The notes under the pieces were generated by a model. It was not told the DNA's origin, searched no databases, and saw nothing but the letters and a program-made list of their open reading frames with translations. Below are positions 11,379 to 43,047 of a stretch of DNA of 64,000 nt, in pieces. This DNA comes from Deltaproteobacteria bacterium (GTDB taxonomy: Bacteria > Myxococcota > JACRCW01): assembly GCA_016218805.1 (NCBI GenBank), contig JACRCW010000153.1:1-64000 (forward strand), read 5' to 3'. Both the position numbers and the translations under genes were made by a program. The first letter of the stretch is position 1, and the number at the start of each line of letters is the position of its first letter.

Positions 11379-11430
11379 CGGCGGGCGGGATGTTGCCTCG
11401 GCGGAGCGACGGCCCCACTATTGGCCGATC

Positions 11431-13578: not shown

Positions 13579-16500
13579 ATGGGCACGGGCTATTCGCGCC
13601 GGTGGCTGAGCGGCGCGTTGTGTGTGGCGGGAATGTTCTTGCTGGCGCGCTGCGCCGGCTGCAACCCATCCTCCAACCCGGTTGACGACGAGGGGACCGG
13701 AGACGTCGGCGCGGCGTGCTCCACGCCAGGCGCCTGCCGCACCGGGTTGCTGTGCGTGTCCGGGACGTGCCAGGCGCCCAACCCGGTGGATGGCGGCGGC
13801 TCCTCCTCGTCGTCGTCGTCTTCGTCCGGGTCCACGTCCTCTGGCGGCGCGGACGGCGGCGGCGGGGACGCGTCCGTGCCCACGGGCGTGCTGACCATCA
13901 CGCCCTTCCCGGAGGCCGAGTTCGGCGCGCAGCGCATTGGGACACCGGTGGGCGTGAACATCTTTGCCACCAACACGGGCAACGCGCCGTTCACCGTCAT
14001 CTTGGTCCTGCTGGACGGCAACCCGACCAGCGAATTTGCGGCAGAGCCCACCGGGTCACTCAACCGCGTCATGCAGCCGCAGGATGAGCTGGTCATCCGC
14101 GTCACGCACACGCCGGCAGATGGCACACCGGACCGGGCGCAACTCAAGCTGGTCACGTCCCTGGACCCCAGCACGCCGGTGAGCGTGGACCTGGTGGCGG
14201 TGTTCAAGGGGACTCCGGTGGTGAGCGTGACCACCGACGTGGCGCAGGTGAGCCCGTCCATCACCGCCACGGACCTGGGGTTGGCGCCGCTGGGCACCAC
14301 GCTCGCGCGGCAGGTGTACGTGCGCAACACGGGGGCGGCCAACTCCGTGCTCACGTTGCAGGGGCTCACGGTCACGCCGCTCAGCGGCGCGTTTGCGGCA
14401 ACCGCCGGGACGGTGGCCGGCCGGGTGCTCTCGCCGTTCACCGGGTTCTGCGGCACCGGTGGCACCTGCCCGGCGGACCACCCCACCTGCCAGGGCACCA
14501 TGTGCATTGACGCGGACGGCGTCACCGCGGACACGCTGGTGGTGACCGTGGAGTTCACGCCCACCGCGGCGGGGCCCACGCAGGCCATCCTGACGCTGTC
14601 CCACACGGACGGCACCACGGACGCGCAGACCTCCATCACGCTGGACGGCAGCGGCGCCCGCGGCGTGCTCAGCGTGACGCCGGGGGCGGTGGATTTTGGG
14701 ACGGTGTTCGTGGGGCGGCGGGCGGACCGGCCGGTGGTGCTGCAGAACGTGGGTGACGCCACGCTGGCCATTGACCTGCCCGCGGTGACGGGTGCGGCGG
14801 CGTTCACGTCAGACGCCACAGCGGCGCTGGTGCTGGCGCCCGCCCAGGCGGCGTCCGTGGTCCTGCGGGTGGAGCCACAGCTGCCAGGTCCGCTGGCCGG
14901 GACGCTGCAGATCCGCGGCCCGGATATTGAACCCTTGGATGTCCCCCTGTCCGCCAACGCGCGCCACGCGCCGGAGATCCTGGTGGAACCGTGGCTGTCG
15001 TTCGGGAGCGTTTACGTGGACACCACACGCACGCTGCCGCTGCGCATCCGCAATGGCGGGCCGGGCGCGCTGTCCATCCTCAGCATCGCCGTGGAGGGCA
15101 CGGCCGCCGGGCGCTACAGCCTGTCCCCACCGTCGTTCCCGGACGCGTTGGACCCGCTGGCGGCGCCCACGGACAATGACCCCTCACTGCGGCTGGACGT
15201 CTCCTACCGGCCGTTGGGACCGCCCAACCTGGTGGAGGACCGCGCCACGCTGGTGCTGACCACGGATGACCCGGACGCCCCGCGCGCGGAGGTGACGCTG
15301 TCCGGGCTGGGGGTGCACCCGGTGGTGGTGGTGCAGCCCACCTCGCTGTCCTTTGGGGACGTGCGCGTGGGCGGGGTGCCCGCGGAAAGGACCCTCACCG
15401 TCTACAACAACGGCATCGGCCCGCTTTCCCTGACGTCGCTGTCCACGGGCGGTGGCGCGTTTGTGCTGGCCAATCCCCCGCTGCTCCCTGCGGCGGTGTC
15501 ACTGGGAGCGCCGCTGGTGCTCACCGTGCGGTTCACGCCTGCGGGCCTGGGGGCCGCCTCGGACGTGCTGAACATCACCTCTGACGACGTGGCGACGCCG
15601 TTGGTGGCCGTGCCGCTGTCCGGCAACGGCGCGCTGGGCGCGCTGACCCCCACGCCCGCCAGCCTGGCGTTTGGCGAGGTGTTCGTGGCGCGCACGGAGC
15701 GGGCCACGGTCAGCGTGCAGAACACGGGCACGGCGGACGTGCAGGTGACCGGGGCCCGCGTGGACGGGAATTCCGCGTTCCGCTGGGTGGCGCCGGGCAC
15801 GCCGTTCACGCTGGCTCCCGCCGCCACGCGTGCGCTGGAGGTGGAGTTTGCCCCCATTGCCGAAGGACAAGGCCTCAGCGCGCAGGCGGTGCTGGAGACG
15901 GACCTGCCCACGCCGCTGATCGTGCAACTGTCCGGCAGTGCGCGCGCGGAGCCCACGGTGCTGGTGCCTGCGTCGGTGGACTTCGGGTCGGTGGACACGC
16001 TGTCCACCCGCGTGCTGGACGTGCCCATCCGCAACCTGGGGCCCGGACTGCTCAGCGTCACCAGCCTCACCATCACCGGTCCCGGCGCCGCGCGTTTTGC
16101 CGCCACGCCCACGGGCTTTGCGGGGTCACTCCCGCCGTTGGCCACGCCCTCCAGCCCCACGCCGGCCTTCACGCTGGCGGTGAGCTACCAGCCCGCCGCG
16201 CCCGTGACGCTGCTGGCGGACGTGGCCACGCTGCACGTCTTCACCGACGATCCCGACACGCCCGACGCCACCGTGGAGTTGGCGGGCGTGGGCCGCCGTC
16301 CGGTGGTGGGCGTCAACCCGCTGGCCGTGACGTTCCCCGACACGCGTTCCGGAACCGCCTCCAGCCCCATCACGGTGAGCGTGTTCAACAACGGCGCGGG
16401 TCCACTCACCCTCACCGCGCTGGAGATCGCCGGGGCGGCGTTCTCGCTGGCGGCGGCGCCGGCACTGCCCACCACAGTGCTGCCCAGCTCGCCGGCCACG

Positions 16501-19161
16501 CTTGGCGTGGTGTTCGCGCCCTCATCCGTGGGGAGCGCCACCGGCACGCTCACCGTGCGCACGGATGACCTGGCCAATCCCGCCGTCACCCTCACGCTGT
16601 CCGGCAACGGTACCCAGGGGCTGCTGGTGGCGGAGCCGGCCGCGTTGTCGTTCGGAGACACCTTCACCGGGCGCACGTACACGCGCACCGTCACGGTGAC
16701 CAACCGCGGCAGCGCAGCGCTGAACGTGACGGGCGCCTCCGTGTCGCCGGCGGGCACCGCGTTCTCGTTTGCCCCGGCGTCCTTCCCCGTGGCGCTGGCC
16801 CCCAATGCGTCCACCACGCTGACCGCGCGCTTCAATCCCAGCGCTGCCGGGGCCGCGGTGGCGCAGGGCCTGGTCAGCCATGACAGCGGGCCGGACGCCG
16901 TGGCGCAGCTGTCCGGGAATGCGCGCGCGGAGCCCACGGTGCTGGTCCCCGCCAGCGTGGACTTTGGGCTGGTCTACGTGGGCACACCGTCCACGCGGGA
17001 GGTTGCCATCCGCAACCTGGGACCGGGCACGCTGTCCGTCCGCGGCATCCGCGTCACGGGCGGCGGGACGGCGCGCTACTCGGTGAGCCCCACGTCCTTC
17101 ACCGGCACGCTGGCGCCGCTGGCGTCGCCATCGGACACGGACCCGCGGTTTGCGCTCAGCGTGACGTACCTGCCGGTGGCACCGGTGACGGGCGCGGCGG
17201 ACGTGGCCACCGTGGAGATTGACACCGACGATCCGGACACACCGACGGCGAGCGTGGCGGTCTCCGGCACGGCGATCCTCCCGGTGATGACGCTGGACCG
17301 CACGGCGGTGGACTTTGGCGTCAACACGGTGGGCATGGCCGCCACGCCGCAGGACATCTCCGTGCGCAACACGGGCGCCGGCCCGCTGGTGATCACCGCG
17401 GTGTCCATCCCCAATGGCACGCCGTTTGGCTTCACCCTTGTGGGCGCCACGCTGCCCGTGACGCTCCAGGCGGGCGGACTGCCGCTGGTCATCCGCACCA
17501 CGTTCACCGCGCCGTCAGCGCAGGCGTTCTCCACGGCGCTGTCCATCTCCGGAACGGACGCCGCCAACCCCACCGCCACGGTGACCCTGTCGGGCTCGGG
17601 CAAACCGTGTGACCCGCGCGCGGGCGCGTCCTTTGTGCAGAGCGGCGCGTCCTGCACGTACGCCTGCCTGGCCAACCGCTGGGACCTGGACGGTGACCTC
17701 AACGCGGGCACCAGCAACGGCTGCGAATACACCTGCACGTTTGTCACCGCCGTGGACAACCCGGATGACGCGTTCAACGACGATGACTGCGACGGCACCG
17801 ACGGTGACACGGCGCTGGACGTGTTTGTGGACGGCGCCAACGGCGACAACGCCAACGCCGGCACGCGCACCGCGCCCAAGCGCACCATTGCCGAGGGCAT
17901 CAATGCGGCGGCGGGCGGCCGTTTTGTCCTCGTCGCGCAGGCGTCCTACACGGAGTCCATCACCCTGCGGAACGGCGTCTCCGTTGTGGGCGGGTATGTG
18001 GCCGGGAACCCGCGCTGGGTCCGCACGGCCACCAACCGCGCCAGCGTCCAGGGCGGCGTCACCGCGGTCACCGCCACCGGCATCTCCCTGGCCACCCGCC
18101 TGGAGAGCCTGCTCATCACGGCGGCCAACAACGCCGCCGCCAGCGGCTCATCCATTGGCGTGAAGGCGTTCAACGCGGACGGGCTGCAGCTGGTGAACCT
18201 GGAGGTCACCGCCGGCACCGGCGGGGCGGGGACCAATGGCGCCAACGGCACGGCAGGCGCCGGCGGCGGCAACGGCGGGGCGGGCGTGGCGGGTTGTGAC
18301 GGTTGCAGCGGGAACGGCACGGCCGGCACGGCAGGCAGCCCGGTGGGGGTGTGCGCCAATGGCGTGGCAGCGGGCGCGGGCGGCACGGGCGGCACGGGCG
18401 GGTACGGCGCCGGCAGCGGGACCAATGGGCAGACCGGTGGTCCGGCAGGAACGGGCGGCGCGGGCGGCGGCGGCGGCGCGGGGGATGGGTCACACAGCTG
18501 CGCGTGGGGCTGTGGCAGCGGCGGCAACCCCGGCGGCAACGGCAGCGCGGGTGCCGGCGGGGGGGCGGTCACGGACGCCAACGGTGGCGCGTCCACGGGC
18601 ACCATTGACGTCAACGGCATGTGGCAGCCCAGCAACGGCGGGACGGGCGCACACGGCAACAACGGCACCGGAGGTGGCGGCGGCGGCGGCGGCGGCGGGA
18701 CGGACTGCTGCCTGGATGACCGCGGCGGCGGCGGTGGCGGCGGCGGCGCGGGCGGTTGCGGCGGCCAGCGCGGGACGGGCGGTGCCGGCGGCGGGGCGTC
18801 CATTGCGGTGCTTGCCGTAGCCAGTGACCTGGTCATCCGGGACTGCACGCTGCGCGCCGGCAGCGGCGGCAAGGGCGGAGATGCGGGCAGCGGCGGCGGC
18901 GGCGGCGTGGGTGGCGGTGGGGGCGCGTTTGGCGCGGCCGCGGATGACGGGGACCGCGGCGGCAGCGGTGCCGGCGGCGGCAACGGCGCGCGCGGCGCGC
19001 ACGGCGGCGGCGGCGGCGGCGGCGAAAGCTGGTGCGTCTACCGCTCCGGCGGCGCCGCGCCGACGTTGAGCGGTACGACGATGCTGGCGGGCAGCGCCGG
19101 GCTGGGCGGGTCCAGCCCGGGCAACGCGGGCGCGGCGGGGAGCGCCGGGCAGCTCAAGTGA
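13579..19161 (+). CDS. 1860-aa secreted/lipoprotein with tandem choice-of-anchor D (ASH Ig-like) domains, DUF1565-like segment and Gly-rich C-terminus
   Basis: Hydrophobic N-terminus followed by Cys (ARCAGC), Ser linker, repeated 'P.(S/A)(L/V).FG.V...V.N.G...L' Ig-like units, DDDCDG, GTRTAPKRTIAEGI and a long Gly-rich tract. Confidence 0.85.
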   Translation: MGTGYSRRWLSGALCVAGMFLLARCAGCNPSSNPVDDEGTGDVGAACSTPGACRTGLLCVSGTCQAPNPVDGGGSSSSSSSSSGSTSSGGADGGGGDASVPTGVLTITPFPEAEFGAQRIGTPVGVNIFATNTGNAPFTVILVLLDGNPTSEFAAEPTGSLNRVMQPQDELVIRVTHTPADGTPDRAQLKLVTSLDPSTPVSVDLVAVFKGTPVVSVTTDVAQVSPSITATDLGLAPLGTTLARQVYVRNTGAANSVLTLQGLTVTPLSGAFAATAGTVAGRVLSPFTGFCGTGGTCPADHPTCQGTMCIDADGVTADTLVVTVEFTPTAAGPTQAILTLSHTDGTTDAQTSITLDGSGARGVLSVTPGAVDFGTVFVGRRADRPVVLQNVGDATLAIDLPAVTGAAAFTSDATAALVLAPAQAASVVLRVEPQLPGPLAGTLQIRGPDIEPLDVPLSANARHAPEILVEPWLSFGSVYVDTTRTLPLRIRNGGPGALSILSIAVEGTAAGRYSLSPPSFPDALDPLAAPTDNDPSLRLDVSYRPLGPPNLVEDRATLVLTTDDPDAPRAEVTLSGLGVHPVVVVQPTSLSFGDVRVGGVPAERTLTVYNNGIGPLSLTSLSTGGGAFVLANPPLLPAAVSLGAPLVLTVRFTPAGLGAASDVLNITSDDVATPLVAVPLSGNGALGALTPTPASLAFGEVFVARTERATVSVQNTGTADVQVTGARVDGNSAFRWVAPGTPFTLAPAATRALEVEFAPIAEGQGLSAQAVLETDLPTPLIVQLSGSARAEPTVLVPASVDFGSVDTLSTRVLDVPIRNLGPGLLSVTSLTITGPGAARFAATPTGFAGSLPPLATPSSPTPAFTLAVSYQPAAPVTLLADVATLHVFTDDPDTPDATVELAGVGRRPVVGVNPLAVTFPDTRSGTASSPITVSVFNNGAGPLTLTALEIAGAAFSLAAAPALPTTVLPSSPATLGVVFAPSSVGSATGTLTVRTDDLANPAVTLTLSGNGTQGLLVAEPAALSFGDTFTGRTYTRTVTVTNRGSAALNVTGASVSPAGTAFSFAPASFPVALAPNASTTLTARFNPSAAGAAVAQGLVSHDSGPDAVAQLSGNARAEPTVLVPASVDFGLVYVGTPSTREVAIRNLGPGTLSVRGIRVTGGGTARYSVSPTSFTGTLAPLASPSDTDPRFALSVTYLPVAPVTGAADVATVEIDTDDPDTPTASVAVSGTAILPVMTLDRTAVDFGVNTVGMAATPQDISVRNTGAGPLVITAVSIPNGTPFGFTLVGATLPVTLQAGGLPLVIRTTFTAPSAQAFSTALSISGTDAANPTATVTLSGSGKPCDPRAGASFVQSGASCTYACLANRWDLDGDLNAGTSNGCEYTCTFVTAVDNPDDAFNDDDCDGTDGDTALDVFVDGANGDNANAGTRTAPKRTIAEGINAAAGGRFVLVAQASYTESITLRNGVSVVGGYVAGNPRWVRTATNRASVQGGVTAVTATGISLATRLESLLITAANNAAASGSSIGVKAFNADGLQLVNLEVTAGTGGAGTNGANGTAGAGGGNGGAGVAGCDGCSGNGTAGTAGSPVGVCANGVAAGAGGTGGTGGYGAGSGTNGQTGGPAGTGGAGGGGGAGDGSHSCAWGCGSGGNPGGNGSAGAGGGAVTDANGGASTGTIDVNGMWQPSNGGTGAHGNNGTGGGGGGGGGGTDCCLDDRGGGGGGGGAGGCGGQRGTGGAGGGASIAVLAVASDLVIRDCTLRAGSGGKGGDAGSGGGGGVGGGGGAFGAAADDGDRGGSGAGGGNGARGAHGGGGGGGESWCVYRSGGAAPTLSGTTMLAGSAGLGGSSPGNAGAAGSAGQLK

Positions 19162-19167
19162 GGGAAC

Positions 19168-19512
19168 TCAGCCGCGCCGGCTGGCAAGGCCCGCGCGGAC
19201 GCGCTGCACGCGGGTGTTGAACTCGGCGGCGTCCACTTCGTCCACCTCTCCGTCAGGGAAGGAGACACGCGTCAGGTATTGCATGGCGCGGACAAACTCT
19301 CCCGTGGCCCAGTCCAGCGCCTCCACGTCCATGCCGCCGCCCGGCGTGGCCACCGTCCGCACCGGGCGATCACCCACCACGAAGTAGCGCCCGGCCAGCG
19401 ACGGCACGCGCGGTGCGCTCCCGTCGGGGGACAGCCCCACCGGGTCGTTCCAACGCTCGCCGAGGGTCGACTTGGGGGCGGGGGGGTGCGTCGGCTTTGC
19501 CATGGGGCTCAC
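19168..19512 (-). CDS. small hypothetical protein, candidate immunity protein/antitoxin
   Basis: 114 aa (111 aa from ATG 19503). GTG start overlaps the upstream TGA (GTGA). Globular-looking RYFVVGDRPV..GGMDVEALDWATGEF. Function inferred from position only. Confidence 0.7.
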   Translation of the reverse strand: MSPMAKPTHPPAPKSTLGERWNDPVGLSPDGSAPRVPSLAGRYFVVGDRPVRTVATPGGGMDVEALDWATGEFVRAMQYLTRVSFPDGEVDEVDAAEFNTRVQRVRAGLASRRG

Positions 19513-22500
19513 TCCGCTTCCGTCATCCGGATGTGCACGCTGCCGTCGGGCCGGACGTCCACGGCTTCCACGCGGAACGCGGTGCCGTGGGCAAACAGGA
19601 CCTCGGACTCCGCCCGGCCAAAATACGACAGCGCGGAGATGTCCCGTCCGGTGCGGGACTGGATGTCATACACAACGTTGCGCCTGCCCAGGGTGGTGGG
19701 CGCGGAGGCCGCGCTGGTGGTCGACAGGAAGTCATGGTGAACCACTGGAACGCCCTCCGCCATGTGCGCACGGTACTGCGCCACCAGCGCCGCGGGGTTG
19801 TCCAATTGCAGGCCGCGGAGCACGCGACCCTGGTATGCGGGCAACCGCGACAAGCCACGGTTGAGCGCCGCCACGTAGGGCAGGTGCTCGCGGATGGCCG
19901 CCGGGTCGGTGCTGCGCAAGGCCCGGTTGAGTTCCTTGAAACCGCTCATCGTGTACGCGTGAATGGCACGCGCCTCCTCGGGATGCGCCCGGAGTTGGGG
20001 CGAGGCCGCGGTCGCATCGTCCAGCCGGGCGCGTGCCAACTCACCCAGCGGCACCCGCTGGTCCAGGTACGCCCGTGCCGCGGGCTCCAAGGCGCGCCCG
20101 TGCAACGCCACGTCATAGAGCGCACGGGAGCGCTGCCGCAGCCCGTCCACGTACGCCTGCTCCGGCCCAGTCAGCGCCCGCCCGTCCTGCCTGGCGCGCG
20201 CCTCCAGGCTCCGGATTTGTTCGTAGATCCTGTGACCCGGACCCTCCTTCACGGCCAGGACGTCCCGGTGCTGCAACTGCACTTCCACGGTGGTGCCCTG
20301 CATGGGGACGTGGGCGATGACGTCTCGGTAACCCTCCGCCGTGGGCGTGGTGAAGCGGTCCTTGATGACGGCGTCGGGGTAGGTGCGGCGCAGGTCTTCC
20401 AACCCGCGGGCAAACGCCTCCGGGCTGTCGTAGACCACCATGCCGCGCGCCAGGTCCTTGAGCCGGGTCGGGTCGCCGCCGTAGTCGGCGAGGACCTTTT
20501 CCAGGGCGCGCGGGCGGCCCTTGAGACCGGGTACGGAGGCTTGGCCCCCCGTGCGCGCGGCGAGTCCTTCCAGGTCTGCCTTGAGGCGCGGGTGGGCCTC
20601 CGCCGCCCGGGTGTAGGCCGCGTCAAGCCCCGCTTCAATCTGCTGGCGCGTGCGGCCGCCCGGCGCGTCCAGTTGGGGTGTGACCAGCTCCGCGTCAGCC
20701 CCGGGTGCAGGCCGGGCGTCCAACGCGTCCACGGCGCGTCCAAACTCGGCGCGCGTGCTGGCCACGAATCCGGGGATGTCCGTGGCCCCTGCCGCGCTGG
20801 CCGTGTGGGTCACGAGCGCGCGCCCCTGGGCGCCGCCCACCTGGACCCCCACGGCGTTGCGAAGGGCTGTCTCGCGCATCACGCGCTGGCTGGCCAGTTC
20901 CTTGGCGGCGGCGGGATCCGTCCGGGCCCGGGGCTCCAACTCACGGATGCGCGCGTCAATGCCCGCCAGACGCTGGGAGTCGGACAACAGGATGGTGTTC
21001 TTGGCAGCCGCATCCAGCCGGGCCGCTGTTTCGCGCAGGGTGAGCTTGCGCGGGTCCAGCCCACGCAGCGCCTCCGTCACACTGCGGGCCTGCTGGCGCA
21101 TGGCCTCGCCGTGCGCGGCGTTCTGCGCCAGCTGTTCGCGCACGTGGACCGCCAATTCCGCGGGCGTGCGGCCCACCGGAACGGGCATGTCCATGGTGAA
21201 CGCCGGCCGGATTCCATCAGCGGGAACCTCCACCCGCACCACCGACTGGTCCCCACGGCGGAGGGGTGCCTGCACCGCCGCGTCGATGTTGCCGTGCGCG
21301 AGCGCATGGCCGGCGTTGTGACTGAGCTGGGCGCCGAGCACCTCTGCCCGGGCCGCCTTGGCCTGCGCCATGCGCAGCCCGTCGTACACCTTGGCAGGCT
21401 GGCCACCGCGCAGGGCTTCCGCGCGTGCGGTCAGCAGCTGGTTGCGCATGTCCTGGGCGTGCGTTGTTACCTCGTCATGGCTGTTGCCACCGGCGTACTC
21501 GCCCTGGGGCGCGGCGCCGGAATCATGCCCTTTCTGGAAGGCCTCCGCCCTCCGCGCGGCGGCTTGCGCCCCCTCCGGTGACAGGTCCAACCCGCGCGCG
21601 TCGTGCGGGTTGCCAAACACGGACGGGTCCGCCGTGTGGTCAAACGTGGTGCGTCCAAAGTCCGGGCGCGGGGTGCCCCGCCGGACGGCGGCGGCCTTGG
21701 CGGCGTGGACCACTTCGTGGGCGGATGAGTTGTTGCCCGGGTGCAGGTCCACCACCGCTTCGTGGCTCACGGCCAGCGTGTTGGTGGCGGGGTCATAGCT
21801 GGCGTTGGCGTGCGGGCTGAGTTCGGGGTCATAAACCACCTTCAGGGGCGTGTCGGTGGCCACGCGTCCGTTGCCGAATTTCTCGTTCAGGGAGCGCGCG
21901 AACCGGTTGAGCGGGTGGTTCCCTTCCGGCTTGATGATGATGCGTTCACGAATCCCACCGTCGGCGCTGAGCACCAGGTCGGGCGCCACGGCCACCCCCC
22001 CCTGCTCCAACCGCGCCTGCGCCTCGGCGGGCACGGACCTCCCGCTTGCTGCAGCGTCCCGGAACAACTGGTTCCGCTTCTGTTGCTGCAGCGGCGTGTA
22101 CGCGTCGGCTTCCAGGCGGGCACCCGGTGCCTCTGGCGGCTGACCTTGGGCAGCGGGCCGGACAGCCGGGTCAGCCACGTGGGGTGCATCCATTGGGACG
22201 CCGTGCGGATTGGCCGCCGTGCGCGGCGCGTTGTTGGGCGCGGCCAACGCGCCAGGCGGGTGGACCGGCAGCGGTGTGCCCACGTCAGCAGGCGTCACGC
22301 GCGGCGCCCCAGCGGTGCGGCCGCCGCCGGTGAGGTTGACGTCCACCGCCGTCCCCTTGAGCCCACCCAGGCCACCCACGGCGCCACCCACGACGACGCC
22401 CGCCAGGCCCTCCCGGGTGGTGACCGAACTGGTGGCCGCATCCTGCATGTTTCGCAGCCCCTGGCCGAAGCCCTGCGACCAGTTGTCCAGCTCAACCGCC

Positions 22501-25500
22501 TTACCTGCCGCGGCTCCCGACGCGTTACCCACTGCCGCGTCGGCCAGGCCGCCCACGACGCCACCGGACACCTTGCCCGCGGTGCCGCCGATCACCTTGA
22601 CGCCGGCGTTTTCCGCCGCCCGGGCGAATATTGCCCCGCCCTTGCCCGCGCCCACGGCCCCCGTGACGCCCTCAGCCGTCCCCTTGAGGGCGTCCTGTGC
22701 AAAGTCCCTGACCTGGTAGTCCCTGCCATCCGCCAGCGCGCCGGTGCCGGTCCTGACGGTCACGCCCGCCAGCGCGCCGGCGCCCGCCGCCACGGCAAAC
22801 CCCGCACCACCGGTGGCCACGCCCACCGCGCCCACCGCCAGGCTGGTGCCGGTATCCTTCACCCAATCCGTGGCTGCCTTGCGGTGGGTATCCACGTCTC
22901 CCAACCGCCGGTGCAGATTGTCCACCTTCTGGTCAATGATCTGCCGCTCCTTCTCCGTCAGGAAACCCTTGGACTGGTACTGCTTGTAGGTGTCCTGGAG
23001 GGTCTGGAACTCGCCGCGCGCGTCCGCCTTCATGCCGGACACGTTGATGCCAATGAAATCCGCCATCCCGTCGCCCAGGCCGCCGCGGTTCATGGTGCCA
23101 CCGTAGCGCTGCGCCAGCTGGGCCAGGTCCTTGTTCAGCGCGTCGGTCCGCTGTTTGTCGCCAGCCTGGATTCCCGCGTTGATTCCCTCCAGGGACCGCT
23201 TCGCCCAGTCGCGCTGGGCCTGGGTGGCGCTGGGGTCATCCGCGGTCTTCTTGTACAGGTCCGCCAGCGCCCGCACGTCGGCGTCGGCCTTGGCCGCGGC
23301 GTCCTTCAGGGCGCTCTGGGCCGCCGCCTCGCGGCTGAGGATGTCATTGCGCACAGCATCCGGCGCGTTGCCTTCGCGTGCGTGCTGGGCAACCTGCGTG
23401 CTGAGGATGGGGTCCATTGCGGTGGCCTGAGCCCGCGCGTGCTCCAGTTGCGCCTTCTCCGCCAGGAGCGCTGCCCGAACCTGCGGGCTCAGCTGGTCGT
23501 TCCGCAGGGCGTCGGTGGTGCGCTTCAGCTCGTCGCCAATCTTGGTCTGCGCTTCCCGCACCTTCTGGTTGTATTGCGCGCTCCCAAGCGGGAGACCCTG
23601 GGCATCCTTGAGGACCTGCGCCGCGTTGCCCGCGGCGCCTTCGGGGATGAACAGCTTGTTGTCCCGGTACAGCTTGCCGTCCGACGCTGCGAGTTGCGGG
23701 TTGTACATCATCAGGGTTGCCTTCGCGTCGGCCTCACTGATTCCCAGGCGCTTTGCCACGTCCTGGCTGAGCGTGGTCAGGTTGTCTCCCGCCTTCACCG
23801 TGTAATTGCCGCCTTTCACGTCGGCCGTCGCGCCTGCCTGGGTCGCCGCGTAGTAGTTCTTGAGCGCGTCGCGGCCGGCTGCGTCCTGCGTCTGCAGTGG
23901 AACCTTGAGGTTGATGCCGGCGGGGATTTCGGTGTCCTTGTATTTCGCCAGCTCCGGGTTGGCGGCACGCAGTTCGGCCACCGTCACGTTGTTGTCGCGC
24001 GCCAGCTTCTCCAGTGATCCCCCGGGCGGGAGCTTCACGTCCTTGGTCGCCACGGGCGGCGGCGTCTCCGCCGTGCCGGCCGAGGGGTCTCCCCCGGGTG
24101 CTCCCTCGCCATCCGCGCCCTGCCCGTCGGCGCCGTGCCCATCCGGCAACCCGCCGCCCGGCACGGCCTGCACCAGGTCGCTGAAGTTCCGGTTGCTCAC
24201 GGGCAGCTGCATGACGTCGGCTTCCGCCGCGGCGCGGGCCGCCTCGGCGCGCGCCAGCTCGGCCTTCCCCGCCGCGGTGTCGCGCGTCGCCTTGCGCGAA
24301 TCCAGCGTGCCCTGCAGCGCGGCGGCCCCAGCGCTGCGCGCGTCCCAGGACGCCTGCCGTGCCCCCACGGCGCCCTCGCGGGCCTTTCGCAGTTGTTGCT
24401 CGGCGTCGGCCACGGCGCGGGAATCACCAGACGCGCGGGCCTGTGCCAGGGAGGACTCCGCGTCCCGCACGGCCTGCTCCGCCGCCTTCTCGGCCTGCCC
24501 GCTCTTCAGCACCGAATCCGCCGCCTGCCCCAGGTTGGCCGCCGCGCGCAGCCCGTCAAACACCTGGTGCGTGCCGGCCTTGGCCGGGTCCGTGACGACG
24601 TTCCCCTGGGCATCCACCAGATTGCCGTCCTTGTCACGGTTCTGCTCAACGGCCGGGCCGTCCTTCCCGTCCTTGATGGTGCTGGCGGTGAACAGACCGG
24701 AGGCCGCCGCACCCAGGTAATCCTTCTCATTCACCGCGCGCGCCGTGTTGAGCGCGCCGCTGGCGACGTTGAGTCCGTGCTTCAGCCCGCCGCCGGTGCC
24801 GTCCTGCTTGGGGCCGCTGGCGTATGACGCGCCCAGGCTGGCCGCGGTGGAGGCCGCCCCCAGCAGGGAGCTGCGCTTGCTGCTCTCGGCGTCGGCCAGG
24901 CGCTTTTCCGCGTCGCGCACGGCGGTCGCGTCGCCGGAGGCGCGCGCCTGCGCCAGCGCGGCCTTCGCGTCGTTCACCGCCTTGTTGGCCGCCTGGATGT
25001 TCTGCACCGCGCCAATGCCCTGGGACGCGTTCTGCAGGTGCTTGCTCACCTCACCGAGCTTCTTGCCCACGCTCTCCATGGCCTTGGACGCGCCGCTGGC
25101 CGCGTTTCCCAAGCCCTGCGCCACGCCGCCCACCACGCCGGCCACCCCGCCGACAATTCCCGCAATCCCTCCCTGCTTGATGGACTGGATGCCGCGCGCC
25201 GCCTGCGCCACGCCGTTGCAGACGTTCACCACCGTCTTGAGGCCCTTGGACGCGGCGTCAAATCCCTTGCCCAGGGCTCCCGTGATGCCGCCGGCCACGG
25301 TGGAGGCGATGCCGGACACCGCGCCCAGGATGCTGCCGGCCTTTACCGCCTTCACCACGTTGATGACGCCGCTGACCACGCGCGCGGCCACGCCCACCGG
25401 CCCGGGAATGAAACTCGCCACCTTCAGGACGATGGGCGCGGCCTTCTTGATGAAGCTGCCCACCTTGGACAGGAAGCTGGGCTTCTTGGTCGAACTGCCG

Positions 25501-28500
25501 GTGACCGTGTTCTGGTCATTCACGGTCATCTTGACGTTGTGCTTGCCAATCTTGAACTCGTGGCTTCCTGGCGAGTTCACCGCCGCGGCAACCTTCTGCA
25601 GGTCACCGTTGGCGCTGCCCGTGCTCCCCGCGTGGCCAGGGATCTTGGCCGCGCCCCACAGGAGGTCCTTGGCTTCCTGGTCAGAGAGCTTGGGCGCGCC
25701 AATCTTGTCCAGCACCTGGAAGTTGTTGAGCGTCTTGCGGACGCGCTCCTGCTGCTCCTCCAACGTGGTGGCGCCGTTGATGTAGTTCGTGGCGGCCTGC
25801 AGCTGGTTGGGGTCCTGCTTCTCCAGCGGCACGCCCGCGTCACGCACCATGCCGGCCACGTCCCCGGCGGTGATCTCCTTGGGCGGGCCCTTGGGGTCCG
25901 CCTTCCCGTCGGGGTTCATCACCTTGGCGGCATACGCGCCATTCTGGTTCACCTGCGCCTGCGTGATGCCGCCCTGCTCCTGGCCGCGGGTGTTGAACGT
26001 GTTGACGGCCTGCTCGTTCCACAGCGCCTGCGGCGGGTTCTCGCCCAGGCCGGTGCCGATCTTCTGCGCGTCCTCCTCGGTGAGCGGCGGCCCCTGCCGA
26101 ACGGGCTTGCTGTCGACGATCGTCTTGGTCTCTGCCGCCGTGAACTCCGGGATGCCCTTGTTCTCCAGGACGTTGAACGTGTTCAGCGTCTTGCGCAGTT
26201 TCTCGGCCTGCTCGCCGGCGTCCTTGGCGTCGTTGACGTAGGCGGTGGCCTCCTGCAGGTGCGCGGGGTCCAGCTTGGACACGTCCACGCCGGCGTCCTT
26301 GGCCACCTGCGCCACGTCGTCCTGGGTCAGGGCCTTGGCGGGTTCATCCTTGTTGTCCTCCTTGATGCCCAGCGCCTCGCGCGCGGTCTTGCCGTTGGCG
26401 TTGACCTGCTTGTCCTCCAGCGACCCCTCCTTCGCGGCCGCGTCGTGGACCATGTTGATGGCCTGGTCGTGCCACATGTTGCCCGCGTTCACCGTTGTGT
26501 CGTCGCGCGGGATGTCCACCGGTGGCCGCGTCTCCGCGGGGGCCGCCGCGGCACCCTCCTGCGGCGGTGCCTCTTTGGCCGCGGTGGGCTCCGTCGTCGG
26601 AGGAGGAGGCGCCGGTGGCGCAGCGTCCGCCGGCTGCTGCGCGTCCGCCGCTTGGGGCGCTGGCGCCGCCGTTCCACGGCGCGCGGGCGCGCGGGCCTGG
26701 GCGTGCACCGCGCCTTCCGGCTGCGCCGCTGGGGCGTGCTCCCCTCTCGCTGCGCGGCCTCGCGCTCCACCACCACGCCGGCCGCCGTGCGCGCGCGGCT
26801 CCTGCGCCGGTTGTTCGGCGAGGTGCGCCTGTGCCCGCGCAATCGCCTCTTCAACGCTCTGCCCGGCCTCCGCGTCCAGCGCGGCGGTCTTCTCAGCAAA
26901 GTTCTTCCGGAGCAGTTCCTCCTTGAGCTTGGCGGTCTCGCCCTTCATCCAGTGGGCAATCGCCTCGCCGCCCTTGGTCTTGGCCAACAGCTCCGGCGGC
27001 AGGTCACGCGCGGCCTGCGCCGCCACCCGCCCCGCGGCCTCACGCGCCACGTCCATGAGCTTCTCTCCCGGCACCTTCCGCGCAAGGTCCAGCGCCAGGT
27101 TGCGCAGGCTCTCCGGGCCCTTGGTGGCGCCCAGCGTTCCCGGCGCCACGGCATGGGCCGCCGCCACCACGTGACCCGCCAGCACGGCCCCGTCCATCTT
27201 CCGCACAAGCTGGCCCACCTTGCGCGTCAGCTCGCCGCCGTTGGCCTTGCCGAGCAGGTCCCCCGGCATGCGCGCGGCAATCCCGCTGGCCACGCTGGCC
27301 AGGGACTCCACCGCCGCCTTCTTGACCACCTCCGAACTGAGTTTCTTGAACAGCCCCACCGCTTCCGGGTTTTCAGGCGCATTCACCGCCTGCTTGTGCG
27401 CAACCGCCTTGGCCGTCTCCGCCACCAGCGACGCCTCGCCCGCCGTGGGTTTGCTCCCCTTGCGGGACGTGGCGACCTGCTCGCGCGCGACAGAAGGCCG
27501 GGCAGCCTCCCGCAGCCCGACGGCCGCGTGAACCTCGGCCGCCGCACCGTTGGGTGCGGCCGCCGCCACCGGTTCGTTCGCGGACGGTGGGGCTGCTCCG
27601 GCTCCCGCCGGTTCCGCGCGGGCGCGCTCCGCGATTCTCGACGACGCGGCGTTCAGCGAACTGAGCGAACCACCCAGCACCTTCGCCACGTTGCCCGCCG
27701 CGTCCGTCAGCCGGTTGATGCACCGCGCGGCGTTCTTCACCACGTCCTGGACGCCGCTCCCGGCCCACGCCCCATCACTCTTGGCCTCGCGGTGCAGGAC
27801 GGCCAACTGCTTCTTCAGCTGGCCGGCCCCATCCGCCAGTGTCGTCGCGCTGCCGGCCACCTCGCTCATTGCTGCGTGCAGTTCCCCCTTGCCAACACCC
27901 TGCTCCACCTCGCGCGTGAGCCGGCGGAGCTCGCCTTGCGCGGCGCGGGCCTCGCCCATCAGGCGCCCGGCCTGCACCGTCGCCTGGCCCAACTCGCGCG
28001 CCCACCCGGCGGGGGCGCCGTCGCGCGCGGCCGCGCGTGCCAGCGTGGTGGCCTGCTGCAGCTCACCGCGCACGTCGGTGGCGGCCAGGGACGCTTTCTC
28101 CAGTTGCCCGCGCGCGTGCTCCACGCGCACGCCCACCGGCGCCTGCTGCGCGCCGGTCACGTCTCCCATCTGCAGGCGGTGCCGGACGTCGTCCAGTTGT
28201 TCCTGCGCGCGCGGGTCCGCCTCCGGCAGCAGCGCCTGCTCGGCGGACGGGCGGTCCGTCTGGGGCGCCGGTGCCTCGGCGGAATCCTCGTAGCCCGTCG
28301 TTGCCAGGCGGGCCGCGGCCTCCGCGGCGGGACCCTGCGGAGCCGTGCGCTGGACCGCGGCGGCATCCTCCGCGCGGTCGGCGTCTTCCTTCGGCGGCAG
28401 GCGGAGCTCCTGCCCGGCCTTCAGTGACCCGTCCTCGGCCACCTGCGGGTTGAGCTCGCGGAGTTTCTCCTCGGTCGTGCCGTTGTCGCGCGCCACATCG

Positions 28501-28598
28501 GCAAGCGTCTCGCCGGCCTTGGCGGTGGCCTTGGGTTCCTGCTTCTGCTCATCGTCCTGCTTCTGGACCGCCCTGGAACCACCGCTCTCAACGCGCAT
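19509..28598 (-). CDS. ~3030-aa LysM-containing polymorphic toxin-like protein with C-terminal RelA/SpoT-type synthetase and ADP-ribosyltransferase domains
   Basis: Three LysM-like domains; helical repeats; Gly/Ala-rich hydrophobic segments; HEVVH; KGRPRALEK / KDLARG / GYRD / EVQ; AIHAYT / LNRALR / VLRG / FLSTT / ESEVLF. ATG 28598 chosen; ORF open to 28673. Confidence 0.85.
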   Translation of the reverse strand: MRVESGGSRAVQKQDDEQKQEPKATAKAGETLADVARDNGTTEEKLRELNPQVAEDGSLKAGQELRLPPKEDADRAEDAAAVQRTAPQGPAAEAAARLATTGYEDSAEAPAPQTDRPSAEQALLPEADPRAQEQLDDVRHRLQMGDVTGAQQAPVGVRVEHARGQLEKASLAATDVRGELQQATTLARAAARDGAPAGWARELGQATVQAGRLMGEARAAQGELRRLTREVEQGVGKGELHAAMSEVAGSATTLADGAGQLKKQLAVLHREAKSDGAWAGSGVQDVVKNAARCINRLTDAAGNVAKVLGGSLSSLNAASSRIAERARAEPAGAGAAPPSANEPVAAAAPNGAAAEVHAAVGLREAARPSVAREQVATSRKGSKPTAGEASLVAETAKAVAHKQAVNAPENPEAVGLFKKLSSEVVKKAAVESLASVASGIAARMPGDLLGKANGGELTRKVGQLVRKMDGAVLAGHVVAAAHAVAPGTLGATKGPESLRNLALDLARKVPGEKLMDVAREAAGRVAAQAARDLPPELLAKTKGGEAIAHWMKGETAKLKEELLRKNFAEKTAALDAEAGQSVEEAIARAQAHLAEQPAQEPRAHGGRRGGGARGRAARGEHAPAAQPEGAVHAQARAPARRGTAAPAPQAADAQQPADAAPPAPPPPTTEPTAAKEAPPQEGAAAAPAETRPPVDIPRDDTTVNAGNMWHDQAINMVHDAAAKEGSLEDKQVNANGKTAREALGIKEDNKDEPAKALTQDDVAQVAKDAGVDVSKLDPAHLQEATAYVNDAKDAGEQAEKLRKTLNTFNVLENKGIPEFTAAETKTIVDSKPVRQGPPLTEEDAQKIGTGLGENPPQALWNEQAVNTFNTRGQEQGGITQAQVNQNGAYAAKVMNPDGKADPKGPPKEITAGDVAGMVRDAGVPLEKQDPNQLQAATNYINGATTLEEQQERVRKTLNNFQVLDKIGAPKLSDQEAKDLLWGAAKIPGHAGSTGSANGDLQKVAAAVNSPGSHEFKIGKHNVKMTVNDQNTVTGSSTKKPSFLSKVGSFIKKAAPIVLKVASFIPGPVGVAARVVSGVINVVKAVKAGSILGAVSGIASTVAGGITGALGKGFDAASKGLKTVVNVCNGVAQAARGIQSIKQGGIAGIVGGVAGVVGGVAQGLGNAASGASKAMESVGKKLGEVSKHLQNASQGIGAVQNIQAANKAVNDAKAALAQARASGDATAVRDAEKRLADAESSKRSSLLGAASTAASLGASYASGPKQDGTGGGLKHGLNVASGALNTARAVNEKDYLGAAASGLFTASTIKDGKDGPAVEQNRDKDGNLVDAQGNVVTDPAKAGTHQVFDGLRAAANLGQAADSVLKSGQAEKAAEQAVRDAESSLAQARASGDSRAVADAEQQLRKAREGAVGARQASWDARSAGAAALQGTLDSRKATRDTAAGKAELARAEAARAAAEADVMQLPVSNRNFSDLVQAVPGGGLPDGHGADGQGADGEGAPGGDPSAGTAETPPPVATKDVKLPPGGSLEKLARDNNVTVAELRAANPELAKYKDTEIPAGINLKVPLQTQDAAGRDALKNYYAATQAGATADVKGGNYTVKAGDNLTTLSQDVAKRLGISEADAKATLMMYNPQLAASDGKLYRDNKLFIPEGAAGNAAQVLKDAQGLPLGSAQYNQKVREAQTKIGDELKRTTDALRNDQLSPQVRAALLAEKAQLEHARAQATAMDPILSTQVAQHAREGNAPDAVRNDILSREAAAQSALKDAAAKADADVRALADLYKKTADDPSATQAQRDWAKRSLEGINAGIQAGDKQRTDALNKDLAQLAQRYGGTMNRGGLGDGMADFIGINVSGMKADARGEFQTLQDTYKQYQSKGFLTEKERQIIDQKVDNLHRRLGDVDTHRKAATDWVKDTGTSLAVGAVGVATGGAGFAVAAGAGALAGVTVRTGTGALADGRDYQVRDFAQDALKGTAEGVTGAVGAGKGGAIFARAAENAGVKVIGGTAGKVSGGVVGGLADAAVGNASGAAAGKAVELDNWSQGFGQGLRNMQDAATSSVTTREGLAGVVVGGAVGGLGGLKGTAVDVNLTGGGRTAGAPRVTPADVGTPLPVHPPGALAAPNNAPRTAANPHGVPMDAPHVADPAVRPAAQGQPPEAPGARLEADAYTPLQQQKRNQLFRDAAASGRSVPAEAQARLEQGGVAVAPDLVLSADGGIRERIIIKPEGNHPLNRFARSLNEKFGNGRVATDTPLKVVYDPELSPHANASYDPATNTLAVSHEAVVDLHPGNNSSAHEVVHAAKAAAVRRGTPRPDFGRTTFDHTADPSVFGNPHDARGLDLSPEGAQAAARRAEAFQKGHDSGAAPQGEYAGGNSHDEVTTHAQDMRNQLLTARAEALRGGQPAKVYDGLRMAQAKAARAEVLGAQLSHNAGHALAHGNIDAAVQAPLRRGDQSVVRVEVPADGIRPAFTMDMPVPVGRTPAELAVHVREQLAQNAAHGEAMRQQARSVTEALRGLDPRKLTLRETAARLDAAAKNTILLSDSQRLAGIDARIRELEPRARTDPAAAKELASQRVMRETALRNAVGVQVGGAQGRALVTHTASAAGATDIPGFVASTRAEFGRAVDALDARPAPGADAELVTPQLDAPGGRTRQQIEAGLDAAYTRAAEAHPRLKADLEGLAARTGGQASVPGLKGRPRALEKVLADYGGDPTRLKDLARGMVVYDSPEAFARGLEDLRRTYPDAVIKDRFTTPTAEGYRDVIAHVPMQGTTVEVQLQHRDVLAVKEGPGHRIYEQIRSLEARARQDGRALTGPEQAYVDGLRQRSRALYDVALHGRALEPAARAYLDQRVPLGELARARLDDATAASPQLRAHPEEARAIHAYTMSGFKELNRALRSTDPAAIREHLPYVAALNRGLSRLPAYQGRVLRGLQLDNPAALVAQYRAHMAEGVPVVHHDFLSTTSAASAPTTLGRRNVVYDIQSRTGRDISALSYFGRAESEVLFAHGTAFRVEAVDVRPDGSVHIRMTEAE

Positions 28599-28962
28599 GT
28601 GTTTCTGCCTCCCCCCGGCCGCCACCGCCGCAACCGGGAACCGGACAACCCCGGCAGTATTGCCTGCGGTCAAGGTTGCAGCATCCGTCGTTGGGTGGTC
28701 CAGTGTCCCACTCGTCGTGGGTGCGTCATGGCGCGGTGCCGCAACCGTTTGGCGCGCGTGGATACGCCCCTGCGGACGCTGCGTTGACGCATTGGGACGC
28801 TGGCCGCCGAGTCGAGTCCAGGCGCAGGGCGGTGTGGTGCTGGCGCAGGTGGAGAAGGGCGAAGAGGCGCGGTTGCCCGTGACTCACCGGCTGGTGCACC
28901 GCTGACGGCGACGCGGTTGGACCGCGCGTGGAACGCGGCAGTCCCGCAGTTGCTGCACCTCC

Positions 28963-29967
28963 TCAGTTCTTGATGATGTAGTTGACCACCAGTGATGGAG
29001 GCATGGTGTTGTGCGCGGCTCCTGCACCGGTGTTTTCCATGAGGTCCGCGCCGCCCCCCGGTGTGAAACCTGCGGCCCCGTTGGCAAAGCCCGCCAGCCC
29101 GGTGGTGGCGGCGGTATTCAGTTGTGCGGGTGTGGCTCCAACGCTGGCCTGGAGTCGGTGGTCATGCGCGGCCAGTTCCGCAACCGTGAGGACGTGGTTC
29201 TCTTCACCGCCGCGGCTGCCAAGCGCGTTGTCCAGCACGGCGGACGCCGCGCCGCCAGCGCCCACGGGCACGCGCCGCCGGAAGTCCGGGAGGTTGAAGG
29301 TGGTGGAGCCGTCGCCGGCGCCGTACGCGGTCTGGATGACGCCGTACAGCGCCCCATAGGTCGCTCGGGAAACCTCGCGGCCGTCACACAACAACCAACC
29401 CGGCGGTGCGCTGGTCCCGCCAAAGGGCGTCATGGCGCCGGTGGGAACGCTGCCGTCCCCGGAGATGCGCCCGCCCACCGGCAGGTCACCGTCCACCACA
29501 AACGCGCTGCCCGGCGCAGCCCGCAGGGCGTACGCCGAGGAACCCAGCCGCTGCCGCCCCGCCAACAGTACAAATGCCGCATCACCCGGGGCCGGCGCGG
29601 TGACCTGGACCTCCAGTTCCAGGAACATCTCCGCGCCGCCCAACGCACCAAAGGAACCACCGGTCACCGTCCCCGTGCCAAGGATGACCGCAAACCGACC
29701 GGCGCTCACACCCACACCCGTGAGCGTCTCCTGGTACAGCGGGCTGCCACCAACCCGAACCGCGTAGACGGAAAGCTGCACATTCATGGTGCCATCCACT
29801 GGCACGCCGTTCCTTTCCAGGAAGCCGCTGTAGGGGATGCCCGTGGAGTCCGTCTGTCCACCTCCCCACGCGGCAAGCGCCAAGTTGCCCCCGGTGAACA
29901 GGACGGCGAATGCCAGTGCGGCAGCCCCGGCAGACGCCACAACCTTTCGCTTGCTGTGGTGATCCAT
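28963..29967 (-). CDS. secreted protein with phage tail-collar domain
   Basis: Signal peptide ending LALA; VPTGAMTPFGGTSAPPGWLLCDG..YGAGDGSTTFNLPDFRRRVPVG..GGEENHVLT..HDH..HNTMPPSLVVNYIIK. Confidence 0.9.
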   Translation of the reverse strand: MDHHSKRKVVASAGAAALAFAVLFTGGNLALAAWGGGQTDSTGIPYSGFLERNGVPVDGTMNVQLSVYAVRVGGSPLYQETLTGVGVSAGRFAVILGTGTVTGGSFGALGGAEMFLELEVQVTAPAPGDAAFVLLAGRQRLGSSAYALRAAPGSAFVVDGDLPVGGRISGDGSVPTGAMTPFGGTSAPPGWLLCDGREVSRATYGALYGVIQTAYGAGDGSTTFNLPDFRRRVPVGAGGAASAVLDNALGSRGGEENHVLTVAELAAHDHRLQASVGATPAQLNTAATTGLAGFANGAAGFTPGGGADLMENTGAGAAHNTMPPSLVVNYIIKN

Positions 29968-42970: not shown

Positions 42971-43047
42971 CGCGCTGCTGCACGCGCGTGCAGTGAGCGC
43001 GCGGCGCTTTGCGCACCGCGCACCACGGATGGCAAGGTGGCGCGGTC

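Follow-up and report, generated by a model that had tools for sequence, protein, structure and literature searches.

Analysis of a 64,000-nucleotide stretch of DNA from a member of the Myxococcota (Deltaproteobacteria bacterium, assembly GCA_016218805.1, contig JACRCW010000153.1, positions 1 to 64,000; hereafter the window) points to a giant gene whose product is probably a modular toxin, exported or released, of an unnamed carrier family. The 3,029-amino-acid (aa) protein is predicted to end in two enzymes in series, an Apk1/Tas1-like alarmone synthetase and an R-S-ExE ADP-ribosyltransferase (ART), and it is followed by a small gene that most likely encodes the putative immunity protein of the synthetase. 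The host is an uncultured groundwater bacterium. Judged by sequence comparison, the chemistry of the two warheads is known, whereas their carrier is new and the immunity family has no name; that one carrier segment resembles a membrane-active peptide of insect nodaviruses is unexpected. An earlier reading of this DNA, made from its letters and a list of open reading frames (ORFs) alone (the sequence-only reading), had proposed a multi-warhead effector of this general kind.

The giant gene occupies 19509..28598 on the minus strand, from an ATG at 28598 to a TGA at 19509-19511. In an ORF scan the frame is open further upstream, to a TTG at 28673 (19509-28673, 3,054 codons); residue numbers used here are counted from that TTG, and numbering from the ATG is lower by 25. 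The motif GGGAGG stands 9 nt 5' of the ATG, and the 3,029-aa product starting there is identical to a database gene call (P0003). The G+C content of the window is 65-76% in 2-kb windows. Within the giant gene, G+C at third codon positions (GC3) is 0.82-0.95 in all 16 successive 600-nt windows, and we therefore conclude that the entire frame is coding. The ORF of about 3,030 aa described earlier is thus confirmed by GC3, by a start preceded by GGGAGG, by the database call and by coverage in Logan contigs.

The stretch was found in Logan contigs of four runs from a single groundwater-metagenome study, with no indels reported. Contigs of the probable source run break at 20349-20378, 26884-26913 and 28678-28707, and contigs from other samples span every break (X3 record 18; X2 records 14 and 16). 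The junction between synthetase and ART is internal to single contigs (X1 record 1, X3 record 18). Coverage of the gene is piecewise, no single Logan contig crossing it whole, and the independence of this support is limited because the runs share one study. Misassembly, a concern already raised by the sequence-only reading, would make the long ORF a chimera of pieces from different organisms joined in a metagenome bin. The division of the assembly into 170 contigs and the three source-run breaks could suggest this, but with each break bridged, no indels and a uniform codon bias we regard a chimera as extremely improbable. Thus, we conclude that the giant gene is real and contiguous, no signs of misassembly having been seen. 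Apparent 'joints' in the Logan contig layout have sides of only 20-24 letters and were taken as noise, and the Logan contig search listed no RNA holder for the stretch. Contigs of three of the four runs carry five clustered single-base differences at 26049-26100 (three G>A, one C>G, one A>C); these fall within a partial duplicate of module 1 of the carrier and look like strain variation. No paralogues of any part of the giant protein were found elsewhere in its own genome.

The first C-terminal enzyme (aa 2669-2860; 20094..20669, minus strand) is predicted to be an alarmone synthetase of the RelA/SpoT SYNTH type. A phmmer search of aa 2480-3054 against PDB matched Tas1 (6ox6_A) with E 1e-13 over aa 2669-2759 and 2808-2847. 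The Pfam family RelA_SpoT (PF04607) gave no match to aa 2660-2880 at E <= 5; the homologues P0039, P0073 and P0091, at 33-45% identity, clear its cut-off. Across 29 Tas1-like domains, R2722, D2740, Y2782, D2784, E2797 and Y2817 are invariant and all are present in the giant protein; K2718, K2726, R2743, R2783 and H2814 are near-invariant. These residues presumably correspond to the basic, Asp, Gly-Tyr-Arg and Glu-x-Gln motifs of RelA/SpoT homologues. With the 6ox6 match and catalytic-type residues conserved in 29 sequences, the RelA/SpoT-type synthetase read from the letters is well supported.

When aa 2640-3054 were searched exhaustively against 1.84 billion representatives, 3,309 proteins matched at E <= 1e-3, including 806 at E <= 1e-10. 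The 149 best matches, the giant protein itself excluded, were re-scanned for domains. A Tas1-like domain is present in 141 of them and ends at most 42 aa from the C-terminus in 108 of those 141; it is mostly C-terminal, as toxin domains are. Relatives of the synthetase make (p)ppApp, (p)ppGpp or both (PMC12691689), and the synthetase of the giant protein may make either or both.

The second enzyme (aa 2881-3054; 19512..20033, minus strand) scores above the cut-offs of two Pfam families, PF03496 (1.4e-8; 34.8 bits against 23.4) and PF01129 (1.3e-6; 28.4 bits against 22.3), and matches the NCBIfam XopAI model NF041404 at 1.8e-10, far under that model's cut-off. In PDB, phmmer aligned aa 2880-3049 with 6dre_B (2.7e-7), placing R2953, S2984-T-T and E3022-S-E3024 in register with the motifs of this solved ART. 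We take 6dre to be Tre1 with Tri1; its PDB title reads only 'PAAR repeat-containing protein'. Based on the PF03496 score and the aligned motif residues, both the R-S-ExE ART at the C-terminus and the arrangement of two warheads in series there, synthetase then ART, hold as originally proposed.

Relatives of the ART occur in 28 of 401 genomes of the phylum. The closest (38% identity, genome G342) is the end of a 993-aa annexin-repeat protein whose ORF also contains a weak match to module 2 of the carrier; no convincing small gene lies behind it. Annexin repeats are fused in 5 of the 12 closest phylum relatives that were scanned. Annexins are Ca-dependent phospholipid binders typical of eukaryotes. 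Annexin-ART proteins of 903-1,116 aa were located at L076:4320-7298(-), L077:4721-7636(-), L078:3062-5794(+), L080:5025-7757(-) and L082:2157-5504(+), and in one genus a conserved gene of 402-447 aa, without a Pfam family, lies 3' of such genes. This gene has no relatives in the window's genome. An annexin was also seen in P0012, a Tas1-like protein of 4,329 aa. Three ADP-ribosylglycohydrolase genes (PF03747) of the window's genome lie on other contigs (C117, C26 and C72), none adjacent to the giant gene.

The combination of the two enzymes was compared with that in other proteins. Among the 149 best representatives, an ART and a Tas1-like domain share a protein in four (P0031, P0039, P0073 and P0091), in each with the ART upstream, the synthetase terminal, 500-800 aa between them and another carrier in front. 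Two Tas1-like domains occur in eight of the 149 and several ARTs in four; none of this set has a synthetase with an ART directly behind it. The expectation that such warheads come one per protein is therefore not a rule, and these counts lead us to regard both as standard cassettes and multi-warhead proteins as an existing class. A Pfam scan of 23 representatives found eCIS_core in four, MuF, PT-HINT, annexin and DUF4781 in one each, and one polyvalent phage-type protein (P0153). Repeated Tas1-like domains were seen in P0007, P0008, P0027, P0057, P0106, P0119 and P0127; in the first of these (3,127 aa), two Tas1-like domains occur together with eCIS_core and a calpain-type protease.

The small coupled gene (19168..19503, minus strand) encodes 111 aa. 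The sequence-only reading had placed here a 114-aa ORF overlapping the giant stop codon. The GTGA overlap exists, from a GTG at 19512, but the likelier start is the ATG at 19503, which has GGAG upstream, lies 9 nt past the GTG and 5 nt after the giant stop, and is the start of the database call (P0004, 111 aa). GC3 of the ORF 19168-19512 is 0.88. Two 81-aa homologues with 62-63% identity define a core at aa ~42-105, and a profile finds the family in 16 of 401 phylum genomes, the window's own included. Eleven other loci were read, ten over 9-14 kb of sequence. One of them, in G281, encodes a 592-aa protein composed of module 2 and a Tas1-like domain (50% identity to that of the giant protein), without an ART, and 13 nt on lies a small-gene homologue. 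In G055 a 786-aa protein with DUF4781 and a Tas1-like domain, likewise without an ART, is followed by a homologue and then by a YscO-like gene. Since relatives of the small gene thus stand behind ART-less Tas1-like toxins in two genomes, position and co-occurrence make a putative immunity protein of the synthetase the most likely role for its product. The relatives track the synthetase only, which leaves the ART without an identified immunity protein; the immunity gene anticipated downstream has partial support in its immunity-like linkage in G281 and G055 but does not cover the second warhead. From the gene row in G055 (L034:2042-5701(-)) one may suspect that, elsewhere in the phylum, a type III-like system makes use of this toxin-immunity cassette. 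The ESM Atlas pointed weakly to Tis1_ImmP (0.79), but hidden Markov models gave no confirmation, none of 13 members of the small-protein family matching PF24154 at E <= 10.

Ahead of these enzymes lies the carrier, all of whose parts are given here on the minus strand. It begins with LysM domain 1 (aa 50-93; 28395..28526; Pfam PF01476, E 3e-15) and an Ala-rich helical region without a family match (aa 100-640; 26754..28376). Second tblastn and BLASTP segments reveal that the first half of module 1 is partly duplicated within the protein (aa 725-853; 26115..26501), after which comes the globular domain of module 1 itself (aa 860-1065; 25479..26096), a conserved carrier domain delimited by alignments A4 and A5 and by a model. 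A short amphipathic segment ends module 1 (aa 1066-1105; 25359..25478). It is succeeded by a Gly/Ala/Val-rich hydrophobic stretch (aa 1106-1200; 25074..25358) and by a repeated coiled-coil-like region common to family members (aa 1200-1500; 24174..25076). Two LysM stretches follow within aa 1540-1700: domain 2 (aa 1551-1592; 23898..24023; PF01476, E 2.1e-8) and a weaker domain 3 (aa ~1627-1667; 23673..23795; LysM_RLK 0.18). Module 2 (aa ~1840-2110; 22344..23156) has a helical part and a Gly-rich hydrophobic part; its profile matched nothing in PDB. An NCBIfam hit to alpha-xenorhabdolysin (E 0.0017, 17.7 bits against a cut-off of 125) was dropped, the module 2 profile search having given no support.

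Several features noticed by eye in the sequence-only reading reappear in this layout: three LysM-like domains, one at aa 50-93 and two in aa 1540-1700, and Gly/Ala hydrophobic hairpins, represented by two Gly/Ala-rich hydrophobic modules. Equally, no obvious signal peptide was recognised, the N-terminus after M26 being hydrophilic and without a hydrophobic stretch as judged by hydrophobicity only. Pfam and NCBIfam searches at E <= 0.1 found no Rhs, PAAR, VgrG, CdiA/TPS, LXG/WXG, MuF or eCIS_core/DUF4157 in the giant protein, which agrees with the earlier description of a carrier lacking RHS, CdiA, VgrG/PAAR and LXG.

Modules 1 and 2 are shared with other bacteria, and six-frame searches under a stricter filter found them in at least 24 of 401 phylum genomes. 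The unpublished genome G195 is among the matches in the tallies of the six-frame module search, of the search for HExxH relatives and of the phylum count of FHIPEP; none of the conclusions drawn here depends on it. Module 1 (aa ~860-1110, and to ~1495 in the closest relatives) recurs at 33-47% identity in about 20 proteins of 526-1,845 aa drawn from genomes, protein clusters and metagenome contigs; BLASTP of the giant protein against P0156, P0158 and P0159 aligned aa 864-1495. The named records are mostly metagenome-assembled genomes labelled Myxococcales or Myxococcaceae, with Archangium, Acidobacteriota and Vulcanimicrobiota also represented. Module 2 is found elsewhere directly 5' of a Tas1-like domain (G281), an ART (G342) or other sequence (G252). 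A search for near-length homologues with aa 700-2120 recovered only the giant protein itself. The host order is represented by just two genomes. Members follow a common plan, in which module 1 is succeeded by a Gly-rich stretch, coiled-coil repeats, a wall-binding domain (PG_binding_1 or LysM) and a variable end. Polymorphic toxins are already known to carry LysM and peptidoglycan-binding (PGB) domains as accessories, and some of these toxins have more than one toxin domain (PMC3482391). As far as these comparisons go, the carrier family is new and unnamed and has no recognised trafficking domain, and the giant protein resembles a family member that has acquired a LysM and helical region at its N-terminus and module 2, the HExxH domain and the two warheads at the other end.

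The sequence-only reading had suggested searching for homologues with different C-termini, and these were found. The last 300 aa of 20 module 1 members with complete 3' ends fall into 14 BLASTP groups (L015-L018 were left out as same-length ORFs fetched again, and L096 and P0156 may be one record). A conserved carrier with C-termini in 14 groups is therefore the pattern of polymorphic toxins. A D-A-H-H motif was seen in the C-termini of P0156, P0158 and P0159; it presumably recalls nuclease toxins of the AHH type, and Pfam and PDB searches gave no confirmation, the C-termini of P0159 and P0156 matching no PDB sequence.

The same variable ends bear on whether the protein is a toxin at all. It could instead be a non-toxic carrier of envelope or extracellular enzymes, held on the wall by LysM and making alarmones or modifying surface proteins for signalling. 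Many C-termini of the family match no toxin family, and PMC12691689 describes exported alarmone synthetases that may act in signalling. However, the coupled immunity-type gene tracks the synthetase across genomes, as with self-toxic enzymes, whereas the signal-peptide synthetases of that survey lack such immunity genes, and hypervariable C-termini point to conflict rather than housekeeping. We consider a signalling role quite unlikely and keep to the reading of a toxin.

Module 1 is the part of the carrier with a confidently predicted fold. Its AlphaFold2 model, built from 11 sequences, has a mean local confidence (pLDDT) of 84.3 and a predicted template modelling score of 0.76 and shows a helical domain, a three-strand meander and then a helix-break-helix. 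No fold match was found: Foldseek gave best E values of 0.56 against PDB and 0.2 against BFVD, and VIA-align against 48,161 chains reached at best Z 5.0 over 45 residues, which is no match. The amphipathic segment that ends the module (aa 1066-1105, containing IPGPVG) has relatives of another kind. Searched against all PDB sequences, the A4 profile gave nine matches at E <= 10, and each of the five with E <= 0.01 is nodaviral. Three are gamma peptides, from Nodamura virus (1nov_D, 3.1e-4), a Flock House-type virus (3lob_D, 6.1e-4) and black beetle virus (2bbv_D, 8.4e-3), and the nodavirus capsid protein alpha was matched at 5.7e-3 and 6.9e-3. The gamma peptide is a membrane-lytic product of nodavirus capsid maturation. 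The segment aligns with residues 2-41 of this 44-residue peptide, including an I-P-G-P-x-G core, and positions 309-352 of the 353 of Pfam Peptidase_A6 match the same site in the giant protein, L015, P0156, P0158, P0160 and L088, weakly (E 0.003-0.05; 13-18 bits, where the cut-off is 27). Over the first 21 residues of the segment the helical hydrophobic moment is 0.52, a value that 1 of 2,000 shuffles reached. Because only 40 residues align and scores are below cut-off, homology and convergence are indistinguishable here; we read the segment as a probable membrane-active element, by ancestry or by convergence. A limited literature search found nothing relevant on bacterial relatives of the gamma peptide, from which absence from print does not follow.

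Taken with the ART, the gamma-like segment raises the question of the target. The same protein might be aimed mainly at eukaryotic grazers (amoebae and other protists), the gamma-like peptide rupturing, in the manner of nodaviruses, the membrane of the phagosome or endosome. The ART would then need no immunity because its target is found only in eukaryotes, and only the synthetase would need an immunity protein because a drain on ATP hits any cell. Besides the segment itself, this would account for the missing ART immunity gene here and beside the closest ART homologue (G342), and would suit the annexin fusions in 5 of 12 scanned ART relatives and the matches of the ART to a family of exoenzyme C2/C3 type and to a plant-pathogen effector model. 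However, the best solved match, 6dre, is one that we take to be an interbacterial toxin, LysM domains bind bacterial or fungal wall glycans, and the 402-447-aa gene after annexin-ART toxins in one genus could be an immunity gene; the sequence itself reveals no target. We judge a mainly eukaryotic target unlikely.

The region between module 2 and the synthetase holds the sole HExxH motif of the protein (aa 2319-2323, nt 21705-21719), in a domain at aa ~2225-2370 (21564..22001, minus strand). In four sequences the motif is invariant, as are a His upstream of it and an Asp downstream. Its relatives are weak (E 6.6e-6 to 8e-3) and are stand-alone proteins of about 390 aa without a family, one with a lipoprotein-type signal; such loci were seen at L061:916-2439(-), L051:904-2781(-) and L052:862-2334(-). 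The region matched nothing in Pfam or in PDB sequences and profiles, and although its predicted secondary structure is compatible with a zincin, the model (pLDDT 43) is unusable. Of the third warhead claimed here, the motif is present and the warhead role is not borne out; the domain may be a releasing peptidase or a third toxin. A divergent eCIS_core is unsupported, PF13699 giving no match in the giant protein. LPD23, to which the ESM Atlas pointed weakly (0.91, 127 shared features), was likewise set aside as unconfirmed.

A mixture of HExxH domain, ART and nucleotide enzyme would also fit a phage or conjugative-element 'polyvalent protein', a type of protein that unites metallopeptidase, ART and other enzymes and enters the recipient with the injected DNA in order to disarm it. 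One representative match (P0153) is of that type, and the LPD23 lead, for what it is worth, has the same direction. We nevertheless find such an origin very improbable: the gene stands among ordinary chromosomal genes (kinases, an RND pump, a TRAP transporter), GC3 equals that of the host, no polyvalent-protein Pfam family matches the giant protein, and none of 10 viral-contig candidates contained module 1.

Returning to the toxin reading, how the protein would leave the cell was examined in the window's genome (6.43 Mb, 170 contigs, 92% complete), a check that the sequence-only reading had recommended. Of the recommended loci, a type VI secretion system (T6SS) sheath, a sheath of an extracellular contractile injection system (eCIS) and an injectisome were not found in this 92%-complete genome. 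These results belong to a set of observations that count against the toxin reading. TssC (PF05943, T6SS sheath) and the phage-type or eCIS sheath PF04984 are both absent from the genome, no eCIS_core (PF13699) exceeds its cut-off there (best 19.8 bits, on another contig), and the sole FHIPEP gene lies inside a flagellar cluster, no non-flagellar injectisome having been found. No export route emerged at all, the N-terminus showing no signal peptide as judged by hydrophobicity and Pfam and NCBIfam no known trafficking domain. At the locus itself no ART immunity gene adjoins the giant gene, the next gene downstream being convergent and 6 nt off. Of 13 carrier-family loci, only 4 show a small ORF on the same strand no more than 60 nt beyond the stop, and most of the family's variable C-termini match no Pfam toxin family. 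The small protein has no relatives in Pfam, NCBIfam or PDB sequences and profiles, and hence no known fold or name, and 9 of the 11 other small-gene loci have no Tas1-like gene upstream. The match to the gamma peptide is short and under the Pfam cut-off. Finally, PMC12691689 reports that some exported synthetases make (p)ppGpp and that SaEAS has no immunity gene and leaves producer growth unaffected.

The flagellar apparatus may serve as an export route. The flagellar cluster (G000 contig C158:35000-70000; L047, L048) contains FliD, flagellin, FlgK, FlgI, FliM/N/G/F, MotAB, FliI and FlhA; most named relatives of the toxin family are labelled Myxococcales or Myxococcaceae, and this order is known for gliding rather than swimming. 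Among five other genomes with module 1, TssC is present in two, a phage-type sheath in one and FHIPEP in all five. The presence of FHIPEP in six of six module 1 genomes is no evidence, because it is near-general in the phylum (317 of 361 genomes sampled).

If the giant protein is such a toxin, its action might proceed as follows. Synthesis would take place in the cytoplasm, with no Sec signal on the protein, and the small protein, next to be translated, would bind and block the synthetase domain; the substrate of that domain, ATP, is universal, and the producer would be protected by the small protein. After release the giant protein could be anchored to a cell wall by its LysM domains, its amphipathic and Gly-rich modules could breach or insert into the target membrane, and the HExxH domain may free the warheads by cleavage. 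Inside the target, the synthetase would deplete ATP by making (p)ppApp or (p)ppGpp, and a target protein would be modified by the ART. A more far-reaching version, which we put forward tentatively and hold doubtful, is that modules 1 and 2 define a new class of polymorphic toxins without an injection machine, which exit without Sec, bind walls by LysM or PGB domains and bring their own membrane-breaching device, the first element of which shares ancestry with the nodavirus gamma peptide, to deliver two unrelated enzymes.

If that were true, a membrane-penetration peptide would be common to a family of animal RNA viruses and to bacterial toxins. What is new in any case is a carrier family with a confidently predicted fold, no solved match, no link to a known secretion machine and a segment like a viral lytic peptide. 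Should the carrier translocate itself, it would add a delivery principle to the Rhs, CdiA, LXG, MuF and eCIS carriers and provide a compact module for moving proteins across membranes. The locus also yields an unnamed putative immunity family for alarmone-synthetase toxins. In addition, it offers a natural case of a single polypeptide in which one warhead has a putative immunity gene and the other has none, and such paired protected and unprotected warheads bear on producer self-protection and on toxin targets.

Other genes of the window surround this locus. The convergent gene (13579-19161, plus strand), which ends 6 nt from the small gene, encodes a 1,860-aa protein with ASH/HYDIN-type immunoglobulin-like repeats; further on, at 10390-13479 (plus strand), lies a 1,029-aa Ser/Thr protein kinase fused to a phosphonate-type periplasmic binding domain. 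On the other side, about 365 nt upstream of the giant ATG, a 334-aa phage tail collar domain protein is encoded at 28963-29967 (minus strand), no counterpart of which was seen beside other carrier-family members. A second kinase, with two cNMP-binding domains, lies at 43009-45363.

Among known systems, the resemblance to Tre1 with Tri1, the pair that we take 6dre to represent, lies in an ART whose R, S-T-S and ExE are in register along a 170-aa alignment; identity is modest, and there is no adjacent Tri1-like ADP-ribosylhydrolase at the giant gene. With the nodavirus gamma peptide the protein shares the 40-aa alignment with its I-P-G-P-x-G core, strong amphipathicity and, in the model, a helix-break-helix, but it has no capsid domain and no sign of autocatalytic cleavage, and the scores stay below the Pfam cut-off. 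Like Apk1/Tas1 with Tis1 from the Pseudomonas aeruginosa T6SS, it has the homologous domain at or near the C-terminus and a small gene directly 3'. It differs in lacking PAAR/Rhs, in a genome without TssC, in a small gene that is not Tis1_ImmP by hidden Markov model and in the ART that follows the synthetase; Tas1 itself reaches the T6SS via a PAAR/Rhs-type domain (PMC12691689). The exported alarmone synthetases (EAS) surveyed there likewise place a SYNTH domain behind an export-associated carrier and are modular and spread over many phyla. The carriers listed for them are the Sec signal, WXG/LXG, XopAD, MuF, DUF4157 and Rhs/PAAR (PMC12691689), whereas Pfam and NCBIfam find none of these in the giant protein. 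Several enzymatic toxin domains on one very long polypeptide are also found in the eCIS cargo P0007 and in P0031, P0039, P0073 and P0091. MARTX toxins and polyvalent proteins are further multi-enzyme polypeptides, and a limited search of the literature on multi-toxin effectors gave nothing relevant, which does not imply absence from print. Those multi-warhead giants have other N-terminal carriers, whereas the protein described here sets a synthetase and an ART side by side, in that order, behind LysM domains and modules 1 and 2.

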